Below are positions 47,000 to 58,387 of a DNA stretch of 64,000 nt, in pieces. The notes beneath the pieces were generated by a model. It saw only the letters and a list, made by a program, of their open reading frames with translations. It was not told the DNA's origin and made no database searches. Both the position numbers and the translations under genes were made by a program. The stretch is from Escherichia phage Turkey5, in the sequence record PQ471516.1; one strand, given 5' to 3'. Each line of letters begins with the position of its first letter. Within the stretch, counting starts at the first letter, position 1.

Positions 47000-49900
47000 T
47001 TATGAAGTACGTTGAGCAATAAACAAGTCAATAACGTTACTTACACCATCATATACTGCTTGGTAGATAGTAACACTGTTCGCTGCTAGGTTCTGTTCAC
47101 CATCCACAATAGAGTAAGATGGGTCAGCAGTTAGTACACGGTTACCAGTTGCATCTTGCTTCGCATACATGAAGATAGATGCAGCTTTACCACCACCAAT
47201 CAGGCCAGCAATTGGTGCTAGTGTGGTGTTCTGGTCTAGAGTGATAAAGTACACACTAGTAGAGCCATCAGGAGTCCATGTACCAGCCGGAGCAACAGTA
47301 CTGGAAGTAACTTGTGATGGGATAACATCATACTTCTTAGTAGTTACAGAAGTAGTTACAAAGTTAGCTTCGTCAGTAGTGAATACACCAGCAACTTCAA
47401 TACCTTTTTCGAAAGTAGCTTTCTCAATGAAAGTACTTGTTCCGTTAACTGTGATAACATCTGCTGCTGCATCACCTAGTGTTACGCTACCAGTGGTAGT
47501 TAGTGCACCAGATATATTTACAGCCGCTAGGGTACTTGTACCAGTTACTGCTAGAGTTGAACCGATTGTTGCAGTGCCAGAAGTTGTTAGGTTAGTAACA
47601 GAAGCTTCTGCTAGTGTTGCTTTACCAGTTACACCTAGTGTACCACCTACAGTTGCTGCACCAGTTACGCCTAAAGTAGTTCCAACAGTTACTGCACCAG
47701 TGAAGGTTCCACCAACACCACTTACGTTACCACTGAACTCACCATCAACGCCTTTAACTTTACCAGTACTGGTGATTGCACCAGAACCTAAAGTACCAGT
47801 GATTGTCGCTGCTCCACCAACTGTTAAGTTACCAGTTGATTGCATTGAACCACCTTTAACTAGGTTAGTACTTGTTAGTGATTTAACGTTTACATCAGCA
47901 TTTGATTGGTCAACGTTGGCATATAGAACGCCACCAACTGTAAAGTTACCAGTAGTAACAACGTTACCGTTAACTGTTAAGTTGTTGTTTTGTGATCCAA
48001 CTGCACCAAATGTACCAGAGTTTGCAATAACTGCTGCGTCAGTTGAAATGTTACCAACTGCTGATAGAGTTGCAGAAGCTTCTATTGCATATGGTTCTAG
48101 TGTTTGACCACTTACGTCGATGTCGGCGTTAATACCACCTTCAACGCGTAGTTTACCAGCAATAAACGTATCAGGGAAAATCTGAACAGTTTCAGGTTGA
48201 TCACCAACTTTAACACCAACTACTAGGTTTGCACCAGTTTTAACTGTACCAGTTTCTAGTGAACCAGAAGTTACTTTACCAGTTACTTTTGCATCAGCAG
48301 TTACAGTTAGTGCATCGCCGGATGCAGCAGACAATGCCAAGGATGGAGCAGAAACTGCACCAGTTACACCTAAAGTTCCACCAATAGTTGCGTTACTTGT
48401 TACACCTAGTGTGCCACCGAATGTACCGTTTGTATCACTGTGGATAGTAGAAGAAGTAGATAAACTATTCGCAACGATATCAGATGTTGTTAGGTCTAAA
48501 CCACCAGCAGGAGTAAATGTACCGCTTACTGTTAGGTCATTAGTGAAAGATGAATTACCAGCCATAGTTAAACCAGCAGTACCAACAATACTTGTTGCAG
48601 AAACTGCACCAGTATCTAGTGAACCAGTTGTTGCTTTACCAGTTACACCTAAAGTATTACCTAAAGTAACAGCACCAGTTGTAGATAAAGTACCAGCTAC
48701 GATAGCATTACCTTTAACATCAAGACCAGTACCAGAAGCATTGGACAATGTTAGGGACGGAGCAGAAACCGCACCAGTTACACCTAGTGTACCAGCGATA
48801 GTTGAGTCACCACCAATAGTTGCACCCGCAGTGCTCTTAATTGTGGTTGCCACGTCAAGGCTGTTTGCAGTAATATCAGAAGTAGATAGATCCAAACCAC
48901 CCACTGGAGTGAATACACCGTTAACCGTTACAGCATCAGCAAATGTTGCAGCACCAGTTACACCTAGTGTACTACTAAATGTTCCAGATGTTGCAGAAAC
49001 TGCACCAGTATCCAACGAACCAGTAGTTGCTTTACCTGTTACACCAAGAGTACCACCAACAGTTTGATTTCCGGTAACAGTAAGAGTCCCAGTTTGTGCA
49101 TCAACAGTTGTGATTTTACCTGAACCACTGATATCAGTAGTAGATACGCCACCACTTAGAGTACTCAAGCCAGTTGCTTTTAGGGTTGTTGCAACATCAA
49201 GACTGTTTGCTGTAATGTCTGCACCACTTAGATCCAAACCACCTTCAGGAATAAATTCACCTTTAACAGTTAGTTTTTGAACTACTGAATCACCAGTTAC
49301 GGTTAGAGCAGAAGAAGTTAAACCGCCGTTTAAAGTTGCTGCACCAGTAACACCAAGTGTACCACCGACCGCCGCATTAGAAGTTACTGAAGCGTTTTCT
49401 AGAGTTGCAGTACCGGAGATATTTGCACCTTGTGCAGTGATACTACCAGTATCAACACGTACACCACCAGCTACAACTTGAATACCACCTGTATTAACAG
49501 TTAGTTTATTACCAACAGTTGCTGCACCAGTTAGAGTGCTTGTACCAGCTACAGACAAGTTACCAGAAACGGCTGGGCTACCAGTTACATTACCAGTTGT
49601 TAGAACTAGATCCGCACCAACAGTAGTGTTACCGACAGAAGCTAAAGTGTTTGCAGTTACATCAGAAGCAGATAGGTCAAATGTACCAGCTACTACCAAG
49701 TCACCACCGATATTTGCACCACCAGTAGTAGTGATTGATTTAGCACTAACATCAGTTGTTGCTAGGTCAATTGCACCTGGAGTTACAGTTCCGGTTACAG
49801 TTAAATCACCTGTTACTTTAGTGTTGCTTGCAATTTCCACACCAGTTTCGTTAGAAATGGTTGGAGTTACCAAGGAAACAGCAGTTGCTTGTCCAGATAC

Positions 49901-56500: not shown

Positions 56501-58387
56501 CCCTGCCGATGCAGCACCAGATATAGTTGCTGAACTTGCATTAACAGCAGCCAATGTGGTTTCACCAGCAACACTTAGTGTTGTTGTTACATCAACTTTG
56601 TTAGGAGCAATATCAAGGCCATCTACGTCGGCTACGGCAGTTACACCAGTTGTGGTTCCAGTTACTACTAGATCCTTAACAGTTACGGTTTGGCCTTGTA
56701 CGGTTACATTGCCATCTAAAATACTATCTCCAGTTACACCTAATGTTCCACCAAGAGACGTTCCTCCAGTGACTTCTAGATAACCAGCAGTGGTTTTTCC
56801 AGTAGAAGTTAATGTTGTTCCCTGAATACCAGACGTTGCAGTTACGGAGTTAGGAGTTAGATCCTGCCCACTAACATCAACAGTTAGGCCAGTAACAGTT
56901 CCTGTGAATTCTACATCACCTAGAACCGATTTACCAGCAACAGAAAGTTGTGGAGTTCCTGGAGCTTGAGTAGCGTTACCAGCGATTTCTAGATAATCTA
57001 GTTTGTTTAGACCTTTACCTGTGATACCATATGTTGCTAGTGAAGCATCACCAAAGGTTGCAGTTTTCTGAACAGTTAATGTAGCAGGAGACATTAATTC
57101 AGATTGAATTTCGTTCTGTAGAAGAACAGTTGGGCGTTGACCAACGGCAGTATAAGCAAAACCAACTTTGGTATCAGCACTTGCAGATGCTGGACCTAGG
57201 TTTAGTGCTTTAATATTTGCAGTAGTGTTAGTACCACTGATATTACCACCTAGAGTTACAGAACCTTCAAGACTAGTTAGGCCAGATACTTTTAGTGTTT
57301 GTGCTTCGATATCACCTAAACTGAATGTACCACCAAGAACACCACTTACGTTAATGTTATTGAAGTTTGCAGTGCCAGTACTTTCAATATTAGGAATAGT
57401 AGCAGAACCAGTTACTTCGAAATCAGTTACTTTAGTTAAACCTTTAGTAACTTCAAGTAAAGGGGTAGCTGGTGATTGAACTGCGTTACCACTAATAGTT
57501 ACATAATCTAATTTGTTTAGACCATTACCAGTGATACCAAAAGTACTTAAAGATGCATCACCAAAAGTAGCAGACTTAAGAACAGTTAGGGATGCTGGTG
57601 ACATTAGCTCGGACTGAATTTCGTTTTGTAGAATTACAGTTGGGCGTTGGCCTGGTGCGGTATAAGTGAAGCTTAAACGGTAAGCACTGCTTGCGGAGTT
57701 AGCACCGATTTTGACATCTTTAAATGTTGCAGTTGTGTTGTTACCAGTGATGTTCGCACCTAGAGTAACAGCACCCTGTAGGCTACTTTGACCAGACACA
57801 GTTAGGGTAGTTGCGTTTACATCAGAAAGACTGAATGCACCACCTAGTGTACCACTTATGGTAACATCGTTAAAGCTGGCTGTACCAGTACTATTAATGT
57901 CGGTTGCATTTAAAGTTGCAATAGTTGCTTCGTTTGCAGATAGTTTATCAAATGCAGCAGTAGTTCCTGCGTCAGCATTAATATTACCTTTAAAAGTTGA
58001 AATTCCATCAACTGATAGTGAGTCAACAGATGTTGCTTTCAAATCAACATTACCAGCAGTTTGACGAATATTACCACCAAATGAAACACCAGAGTTAAAA
58101 GTTGCTGCGGAGTTAATTGTAGCAGTATCAGTACCTGGTGCTACTGCACCAATCACAGTGCTACCTACCACTTCAACACCACCATTAAGAGATGCTTTAC
58201 CAGCTACATCTAGGGTAGAAGTGATATTAGCAGTTGCTGCTTCAATTGCAGTGAATGTAGCATTTGCAAAAGAAACTGTACCATTTACGGTAAGATTCTT
58301 ATTGAATACTGCATCACCTTTAACTAATAGATCTTTACCGACTACAGCACCACCAGTAATATCTAGATCAGTTTTAATCGAGTACAT
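53501..58387 (-). CDS. giant repetitive fibre/adhesin-like protein, paralogue (1628 aa)
   Basis: N-terminus MYSIKTDLDITGGAVVGKDLLVKGDAVF and C-terminus parallel the adjacent 2120-aa gene; two copies of the 170-aa unit. Confidence 0.7.
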   Translation of the reverse strand: MYSIKTDLDITGGAVVGKDLLVKGDAVFNKNLTVNGTVSFANATFTAIEAATANITSTLDVAGKASLNGGVEVVGSTVIGAVAPGTDTATINSAATFNSGVSFGGNIRQTAGNVDLKATSVDSLSVDGISTFKGNINADAGTTAAFDKLSANEATIATLNATDINSTGTASFNDVTISGTLGGAFSLSDVNATTLTVSGQSSLQGAVTLGANITGNNTTATFKDVKIGANSASSAYRLSFTYTAPGQRPTVILQNEIQSELMSPASLTVLKSATFGDASLSTFGITGNGLNKLDYVTISGNAVQSPATPLLEVTKGLTKVTDFEVTGSATIPNIESTGTANFNNINVSGVLGGTFSLGDIEAQTLKVSGLTSLEGSVTLGGNISGTNTTANIKALNLGPASASADTKVGFAYTAVGQRPTVLLQNEIQSELMSPATLTVQKTATFGDASLATYGITGKGLNKLDYLEIAGNATQAPGTPQLSVAGKSVLGDVEFTGTVTGLTVDVSGQDLTPNSVTATSGIQGTTLTSTGKTTAGYLEVTGGTSLGGTLGVTGDSILDGNVTVQGQTVTVKDLVVTGTTTGVTAVADVDGLDIAPNKVDVTTTLSVAGETTLAAVNASSATISGAASAGYLTLNGASGTGLHVVSNATVGGTLGVTGAVTLGNSLGVSGKATAGSLEVTGAATVGSLTAPTISGNTTFANDVTITGTLTPSGIDLSTTDVSAASLTTTGNVTVGGSLAVSGAIDLSAADVTAKSITATNPSTFGVVNASSVVASGDVSGGTITTTGAAKVGTLTSTGVVSGSRLSSTTATISTSVTTPTVQAEAAGAGTLNLASNVVAAKDLTVTGVFTPQGGLDLSSVDITSNSITTTEGATIGGNLSVAGTVDLSGADVSALSFVSTDALKTNTFPKLSSTDSTLGAAKATTLNVSGESTVANINTSNISASGSLDVVGASTLAAVSATAIDASSVAATGAISGASFTAPGATVEISKSTNVTGDFHASGTLTAGAIDLSTTDVSVKSLNSLGNAHVAGNLTVDGTFDLSGTNLQAATLASTGNTTVGADLVLTTGVITGAPVISGNTTVGGTLGVTGTTSLAGLTAGASTLSSASVTTTLGVTGTSTLGVVQAGATSVSTLSTSGKATAASLEVTGATVAKGNVTVEGTLIPQGGLDLTGADVSANSLSSSTTLSVTGLSTLSGGISTADINATSLTASGTVGAGVLSSTGNTTVGGTLGVTGATTVADLTASGAVKTGTSFTVGTPLAVQPETVHIVPDTYIAGKLRVDGGINADIDVSGQTLEPFAIAADSTVSAVGNITSGATMIAKAATIGDSGSLNNNLTVNGNVVTNGDFTVTGVLNAQLNQADSDVAVKSLTATNNVNAGTSISAGTTITATGKITGGSLETGSTLAVTGLASLNGGVAVTGAATFSENLSVQSEISTATITTTGLATLASVAVTGSATFTGTLTANGNVVLGDAAADTITVNGTATFKENVVIDKALTVTGALNTTDADFTTSTVITKKYSVLPTSVVASTAAVAGTWTPDGSSNVYRLTLDQNTTLAPITGLIGSGEACSVYIYVTPTVSDAVLTIPAEYAVVSGQVSSVVNQVSIIQVVYDGFSTVFDTFIAQRV

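Follow-up and report, generated by a model that had tools for sequence, protein, structure and literature searches.

The long tail fibre of Pectobacterium phage phiTE (Vequintavirinae) is a trimer in which residues 14-171 have been modelled and the rest is predicted to form a long β-helix, 512 Å in total; the modelled N-terminus binds the baseplate wedge and the sheath-initiator helix ("rip-cord") (PMC11972413). Among the Rak2-like jumbo phages, CBB has hairs 119.3 ± 10.4 nm long, counting a tiny globule at the end, and baseplate fibres of 28.6 nm (PMC5259590). The hairs of phAPEC6 form three rings on the sheath, are also present on the capsid, look trimeric and have no genes assigned to them (PMC7247149). 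Mass spectrometry (MS) has found CBB_226 (PMC5259590) and phAPEC6 gp256 (180 kDa; 15 peptides) (PMC7247149) in virions. Here we describe two giant genes, A and B, that belong to the same family as these two proteins and lie next to each other on the minus strand of a 64,000-nt stretch of DNA from Escherichia phage Turkey5 (sequence record PQ471516.1), the whole of which we call the window. The phage can be assigned to Asteriusvirus, a genus of Rak2-like jumbo coliphages.

We consider it likely that A and B are two paralogous virion fibre proteins that form long, thin, all-β rods. Gene A is the downstream paralogue and gene B the upstream one, and window coordinates are used throughout. The genes and their parts are as follows.

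47000-53362, minus strand: gene A, probable giant fibre protein of 2120 amino acids (aa) (open reading frame (ORF) list, PHROG match, synteny, C-terminus comparison)
52916-53362, minus strand: putative N-terminal anchor region of gene A, aa 1-149 (MYSIKTDL...), found in Rak2-like jumbo phages only (A-B alignment, family comparison)
52406-52915, minus strand: 170-aa unit r1 of gene A, aa 150-319, orthologous to r1 of gene B (repeat finding, unit hidden Markov model (HMM))
51896-52405, minus strand: unit r2 of gene A, aa 320-489, lineage-specific extra copy (unit alignment)
51386-51895, minus strand: unit r3 of gene A, aa 490-659, the terminal unit, orthologous to r2 of gene B (unit alignment)
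50987-51241, minus strand: 11-aa (33-nt) repeats of gene A, type G-x-F-S-G-N-V-S-G-V, aa 708-792 (tandem-repeat scan, dot-plot)
49442-50746, minus strand: three shaft modules of gene A with a 145-aa (435-bp) period, aa 873-1307, each with the motif VTGTLTPGAIDLSTTDVS (repeat finding, dot-plot)
48143-49330, minus strand: three shaft modules of gene A with a period of ~132 aa (114-132 aa), aa 1345-1740 (dot-plot, A-B alignment)
47003-47305, minus strand: predicted C-terminal β-sandwich tip domain of gene A, ~100 aa (...FIAQR) (AlphaFold2 (AF2), Foldseek, tblastn)
53501-58387, minus strand: gene B, probable giant fibre protein of 1628 aa, the upstream "extra" paralogue (ORF list, PHROG match, relatives)
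57941-58387, minus strand: putative N-terminal anchor region of gene B, aa 1-149, 72% identical to that of gene A
57431-57940, minus strand: unit r1 of gene B, aa 150-319 (repeat finding, unit HMM)
56921-57430, minus strand: unit r2 of gene B, aa 320-489 (repeat finding, unit HMM)
53504-53800, minus strand: predicted C-terminal tip domain of gene B (A-B alignment)

Both reading frames are present as a preliminary description of this DNA had reported them, and the two proteins are collinear from end to end at ~60% aa identity. Conservation between them is highest over the N-terminal 50 aa (88% identity), and the last ~130 aa are 52-56% identical; these 50 aa and the C-terminal domain, which recurs throughout the family, are the regions under the strongest conservation. 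Threonine, glycine, alanine, valine and serine together make up 61-64% of the residues. MYSIKTDLD opens both proteins, as had been noted. The common ending then given, ...DLFIAQR, is exact for A alone (...DLFIAQRTS), B ending in ...DTFIAQRV; in the alignment both proteins close with a ~100-aa domain of the form ...F[IV]AQR.

The count of three 170-aa units in A and two in B is borne out by a repeat spacing of exactly 510 nt and by a self dot-plot at the protein level, which gives the same 170-aa offset. The recurrent 30-mer said to mark these units is recovered as a 29-mer with up to two mismatches at 51455, 51965, 52475, 56990 and 57500 (five occurrences, against none expected from shuffles), the last two sites lying 5 nt from the positions first given. 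The genes are not, as had been proposed, built from these units, which account for 510 of the 2120 aa of A and 340 of the 1628 aa of B, about a quarter; the remainder consists of other repeats. The 11-aa repeats of gene A, which Tandem Repeats Finder reports as periods of 33 and 36 nt, recur in a second patch at 47630-47887, and B holds diverged counterparts of the shaft repeat families of A. At the centre of all modules stands the motif V-x-G-x-[LFV]-[TI]-P-x-G-x-[IL]-D-L-[ST]-x-x-D-[IV]. A exceeds B by 492 aa, made up of one 170-aa unit, extra 11-aa repeats and extra ~132-aa modules; the latter are mostly without a counterpart in B and explain much of the length difference.

Three lines of evidence uphold the earlier naming of these proteins as fibres: a profile match, a homologue in the long tail fibre of phiTE, and a genomic position shared with 121Q gp571 and phAPEC6 gp256. 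The PHROG 4549 "tail fiber" profile matches A with an E-value of 6e-219 and B with 1e-185. The phiTE fibre (9cuy_g) is the sole relative in the Protein Data Bank (PDB), with E-values of 1e-24 to 3e-28. The similarity covers the latter half of the unit, the junction motif V-D-V-S-G-Q-D-L-T-P-N-S-V and the C-terminal domain, with phmmer domains on aa 205-366, 360-498 and 521-792 of the phiTE protein. phAPEC6 gp256 occupies exactly the position syntenic to the window fibre genes. An AF2 model of the C-terminal tip is a β-sandwich with a predicted local distance difference test score (pLDDT) of 78.6 overall and ~85-94 over the last 100 aa. Foldseek searches with this domain returned 158 viral matches, mostly tail fibre C-termini and including a phiTE-type fibre (K9L5R6, E 4e-12), and tblastn places the domain in 394 phage records, from Rak2-like phages and Vequintavirinae of many host genera.

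Nothing significant came from Pfam when A, B, one unit or the C-terminal domain was scanned, and the precomputed PF26208 and PF26209 labels on two homologue matches were not reproduced in local Pfam. A homologous-protein search yielded only 7 and 1 matches, low-complexity words having saturated the candidates for the unit region. GenBank labels for the family are inconsistent ("hypothetical", "LTF proximal subunit", "autotransporter", "YadA domain", "flagellar hook-length control protein"). The label "long tail fiber proximal subunit" (T4 gp34) finds no support from any sequence test, and the "flagellar hook-length control protein" and "autotransporter" labels are low-complexity similarity artefacts in poorly annotated records. 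In CMSTMSU, an UNVERIFIED record, the upstream fibre paralogue and the colanidase are shattered, and the flagellar label appears.

The comparison with related phages that had been proposed recovers both the N-terminal units and the giant fibre family across the Rak2-like jumbo phages. The locus runs thymidylate synthase, 654-aa gene, 263-aa gene, fibre gene or genes, 301-aa gene, colanidase and tail protein. This order is conserved in 121Q, EC.P1, Ec-M-J, BF17, GAP32 and phAPEC6, the colanidase-like tailspike being absent in GAP32. The N-terminal anchor occurs in 58 phage records, all of them Rak2-like jumbo phages, at 44-72% identity to family members, and the search of phage records did not find it in Alcyoneusvirus. 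One fibre gene is present in 121Q, PBECO4, phAPEC6 and GAP32, and two, seen as two N-terminal anchors, are present in ten published Escherichia records (BF17, EC.P1, Ec-M-J, fEgEco12, Ecwhy_1, Turkey3, WPEC3, WPEC5, CMSTMSU and JNE01). CBB, GAP32 and Xanthomonas phage XaC1 each have two anchor-matching places, so that a second anchor-bearing gene also exists outside Asteriusvirus.

The C-terminus of B is 69-70% identical to those of the upstream genes of BF17 and EC.P1, of which B is the orthologue. In BF17-type phages the C-terminus of the downstream gene matches that of 121Q gp571 at 90% identity, and that of A is 63-65% identical to this group; by its C-terminus, A can be placed as the positional orthologue of the single gene represented by 121Q gp571 and phAPEC6 gp256. 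Because the C-termini group in this way, the duplication predates the window lineage and the extra gene is the upstream one. The family, the tandem pair and the exact variant with three and two units are already in public databases, and our literature search found no paper that discusses the tandem pair or links any genes to the hairs.

Each gene has, as first described, its own upstream element and its own terminator; the shared 12-mer, ribosome-binding regions and hairpins with U-tracts are all seen.

53363-53418, minus strand: putative upstream element of gene A, with the 12-mer ACTAAATATATA (53407-53418) and a AAATGGAGGGAACTA ribosome-binding region
58388-58450, minus strand: putative upstream element of gene B, with the 12-mer ACTAAATATATA (58439-58450) and a AAATGGAGGGAACTA ribosome-binding region
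58465-58492, minus strand: terminator-like hairpin and U-tract after the 301-aa gene, upstream of gene B
53466-53492, minus strand: terminator-like hairpin and U-tract after gene B
46960-46988, minus strand: terminator-like hairpin and U-tract after gene A

The three hairpins have free energies of -12.8 to -15.8 kcal/mol and z-scores of -4.2 to -4.8. Within the window, ACTAAATATATA occurs only at the two sites upstream of A and B; two matches at one mismatch are by themselves not significant. A scan for sigma-70 promoters found 12 sites, compared with 31 expected from shuffles. Since each gene has its own upstream element and terminator hairpin, A and B would be expressed independently and side by side, so that the particle would carry two classes of fibre that differ in length.

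Each protein would most likely assemble into a very long, thin, all-β homotrimeric rod, held to the virion by the conserved N-terminal ~150 aa. Beyond this anchor would follow the two or three 170-aa units, then a modular shaft rich in Thr, Gly, Ser and Val and composed of 130-145-aa modules, and at the end the small β-sandwich tip of ~100 aa. Both proteins look like complete fibres rather than proximal halves, because each ends in its own tip domain. Scaling at 0.54-0.65 Å per residue, for which the length of T4 gp34 served as one of two references, suggests rods of ~115-140 nm for A and ~90-105 nm for B. The other reference was the phiTE fibre (793 aa, 512 Å; PMC11972413). The shafts and tips of A and B have diverged from each other, and reversible contact with the host surface might be made through the shaft, the tip or both. 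A putative role in host range is plausible for the two proteins.

Several observations weigh against the reading of A and B as two such rods. Electron microscopy of relatives reveals only short baseplate fibres, 28.6 nm in CBB, unlike a rod of ~100 nm at the baseplate (PMC5259590, PMC7247149), and virion MS covers relatives with a single gene rather than the A and B pair of the window phage. At the sequence level, the N-termini of A and B give no alignment with residues 1 to about 175 of the phiTE fibre. The trimeric β-helix architecture is itself a prediction, and the AF2 monomer of B aa 140-520 (two units, 10-sequence alignment), although all-β, has a pLDDT of 44 and is unusable, so that the structure prediction proposed for the repeat unit delivered a fold class and nothing further. 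Conservation of the C-terminal domain across phages of many host genera argues against the tip as the sole determinant of specificity. Finally, in vB_Ec-M-J the upstream paralogue is annotated as two coding sequences (CDS; 1049 and 582 aa), for which reason the second fibre may be dispensable; its colanidase is split too, and either a frameshift or a sequencing error accounts for the split genes.

The most serious alternative is that A and B, rather than being baseplate fibres, form the hairs (whiskers) found on the tail sheath (and the capsid) in CBB, phAPEC6, fEgEco12 and other Rak2-like jumbo phages, the two paralogues making two classes of hair or occupying different rings on the sheath. 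We regard this as possible though rather doubtful. Lengths scaled from phiTE or T4 gp34 come to ~85-140 nm for proteins of 1557-2120 aa, bracketing the 119.3 nm of the CBB hair, and the small globular tip of A and B fits an appendage of that form. In both hairy phages MS has found the orthologue in the virion, the anchor is confined to Rak2-like jumbo phages and missing from the Alcyoneusvirus records, and the CBB paper reports no RaK2 homologue of CBB_226 (PMC5259590). The N-termini of A and B are, moreover, unrelated to the part of the phiTE fibre that binds the baseplate. These points nevertheless amount to a length match and a correlation. The authors of the CBB study expected hair genes to be absent from GAP32, which has the fibre gene, although the hairlessness of GAP32 is itself uncertain. 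The gene also lies in the tail and baseplate-proximal cluster, beside a tailspike with its own anchor, and the phiTE homologue is a baseplate fibre folded back along the tail, a disposition that could look like hairs. Were A and B hair proteins, the tandem duplication would give this subclade two hair types that differ in length and surface.

It is improbable that only one of the paralogues is functional, with the other a redundant duplicate that is drifting or is not assembled, even though the upstream paralogue is split in vB_Ec-M-J and a single gene suffices in most Asteriusvirus genomes. Both ORFs are intact in the window, JNE01, BF17 and EC.P1, the pair recurs in 10 Escherichia phage records, and each gene retains a ribosome-binding site, upstream element and terminator. 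Substitutions point the same way. The region is 97.9% identical at the nucleotide level to Asteriusvirus vB_EcoM_JNE01, whose genome is known solely through an announcement (PMC10868205) and in which both fibre genes are annotated as "hypothetical protein"; the gene lengths and the three-plus-two arrangement of units are the same. The two phages differ at 195 nt in gene A, 40 in gene B and about 1 in the neighbouring genes, with 50 aa changes among 170 differing codons in A and 7 among 39 in B. Most of these changes are synonymous, so A and B both seem to have evolved under purifying selection since the two phages diverged.

Part of the excess in gene A is concentrated in a single patch.

50190-50330, minus strand: hyperdivergent patch of ~140 bp in gene A relative to JNE01, with 31% nt divergence against a background of ~2%

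Copying from the neighbouring 435-bp repeats is ruled out as the source, these being only 66-70% identical to the patch. Given this divergence and the lack of an origin in paralogous repeats of the same genome, the patch was probably imported by recombination with phage alleles that have not been sampled. A gene-conversion check on the 74 unit sites that differ from JNE01 found the alleles of the two phages about equally represented in paralogous units (58 versus 56).

Misassembly as the source of the repeat counts or of the tandem order is very improbable: apart from the general risk that repeats pose for short-read assemblies nothing favours it, the units differ by 21-37% at the nucleotide level with a longest exact match of 39 nt and are thus too dissimilar to collapse, and independent assemblies agree, JNE01 having identical gene lengths and units and four proteins from metagenome assemblies in the European Nucleotide Archive (ENA) having exactly 2120 aa. 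These four fall in the same 90% cluster, and two of them come from contigs of 354-356 kb. That short reads would have collapsed the array is therefore unlikely, the ENA contigs and JNE01 giving the same 2120-aa product.

The units also bear on how the two probable fibre proteins reached their present lengths. They share 63-79% nt identity with one another, with longest exact matches of 14-39 nt. A r1 and B r1 are 78% identical in aa sequence, and A r3 and B r2 75%; since r1 and r3 of A pair in this way with r1 and r2 of B, A r2 is counted as the extra copy. This copy is mostly r1-like, at up to 91% nt identity in its middle, and has a 5' end resembling A r3 and B r2. Such a combination of an r1-like body with an r3/B-r2-like 5' end indicates that the third unit of gene A arose by unequal crossover inside the gene.

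With the unit HMM, two copies are found in 121Q gp571, PBECO4, GAP32 gp220 and both genes of BF17, EC.P1 and Ec-M-J; among the proteins compared, the A proteins of the window phage and JNE01 are alone in having three. This gain to three copies is the only one seen among the relatives compared. A profile search with the unit against 1.84 billion representatives matched only 16 clusters, in which full-length members have two units and some shorter or partial proteins (P0005, P0006, P0007 and P0022) have one. Judged by their divergence, the 510-bp units are old and do not form a fresh, unstable array. The description of the array as recombination-prone is accordingly not sustained, the exact matches being no longer than 39 nt and the two copies being conserved in relatives. 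The associated proposal that these proteins change length holds for the family, in which the N-terminal units number 1-3 and the shaft modules range from ~4 to 8 between homologues. It does not hold for the N-terminal array as a hypervariable element; in the comparison fibre length evolves through the number of modules, and the array is stable.

Comparison of the genomes thus points to an ancestor with a single gene of two units, as in 121Q and GAP32, followed by tandem gene duplication in one Asteriusvirus subclade and later by a third unit in gene A of JNE01 and the window phage. Shaft modules have come and gone across the family.

The genes flanking A and B offer some further observations. 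The downstream 263-aa and 654-aa genes encode virion proteins in relatives, without solved or named homologues, and PDB sequence searches with the four neighbouring virion genes gave no meaningful matches. The 263-aa gene (46133-46924), directly downstream of A, belongs to a PHROG of virion structural proteins and has a weak match to DUF4376 (E 9e-5, below the Pfam cut-off); its product could be a fibre-associated adaptor or chaperone. The 654-aa structural protein (44077-46041) shares, at aa 439-487, a 49-aa motif of 41% identity with aa 1461-1509 of gene B, just before the fibre C-terminal domain, and this is possibly a common β-helix or docking element. On the other side, the 301-aa virion protein (58500-59405) and the 715-aa colanidase-like tailspike (59411-61558) have an N-terminal region of ~170 aa in common (28.6% identity, E 3e-16), a pattern that suggests one anchor shared by alternative receptor-binding proteins. 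In the window this tailspike is a single intact ORF of 715 aa; JNE01 has a 1-nt insertion (window position ~61193) that divides the gene into two annotated CDS.

What is gained is a domain map of a fibre family of 1.6-2.1 thousand aa, with its anchor, 170-aa units, shaft modules and tip, together with three routes of fibre length evolution: tandem duplication of a whole gene, one unequal crossover, and gain and loss of shaft modules. The genes are also testable candidates for the hair-like appendages of Rak2-like jumbo phages, a question standing since the work on CBB (2017) and phAPEC6 (2020). For phage therapy based on Asteriusvirus, host-range engineering would most naturally begin with the two paralogues and the neighbouring tailspike. 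The practical value is modest; the domain map and the link to the Rak2-like hairs are the main points of interest.

Set beside known fibres, A and B may be likened to T4 gp34, a large, repetitive, β-rich trimeric myovirus fibre protein, in these general features. No PDB gp34 chain matched A or B at E≤1, there was no Pfam match, and no partners resembling gp35, gp36 or gp37 were identified. The phiTE long tail fibre (PDB 9cuy/9mjn chain g) and the rV5-like fibres are closer: they have a single unit-like region, the junction motif V-D-x-x-G-x-D-[IL]-x-P-x-S-V and a homologous C-terminal domain. The phiTE fibre differs in its N-terminal helical bundle and globular domain, which have no sequence counterpart in A and B, and is ~2-2.7 times shorter, with one unit. 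The Rak2-like family (121Q gp571, phAPEC6 gp256, PBECO4, CBB_226 and GAP32 gp220) has the same MYSIKTDL anchor, 170-aa units, modular shaft, ...FIAQR domain and genomic position, with one gene of two units in place of the two tandem genes found here, of which A has three. The two-gene arrangement is that of the subclade of BF17, EC.P1, vB_Ec-M-J, fEgEco12 and Ecwhy_1. The downstream genes of the BF17 type differ from A in having two units, a shorter, divergent N-terminus (50% identity) and a 121Q-like C-terminus, and gene A, at 2120 aa against 1557-1988, is the longest member of the family that we have seen.

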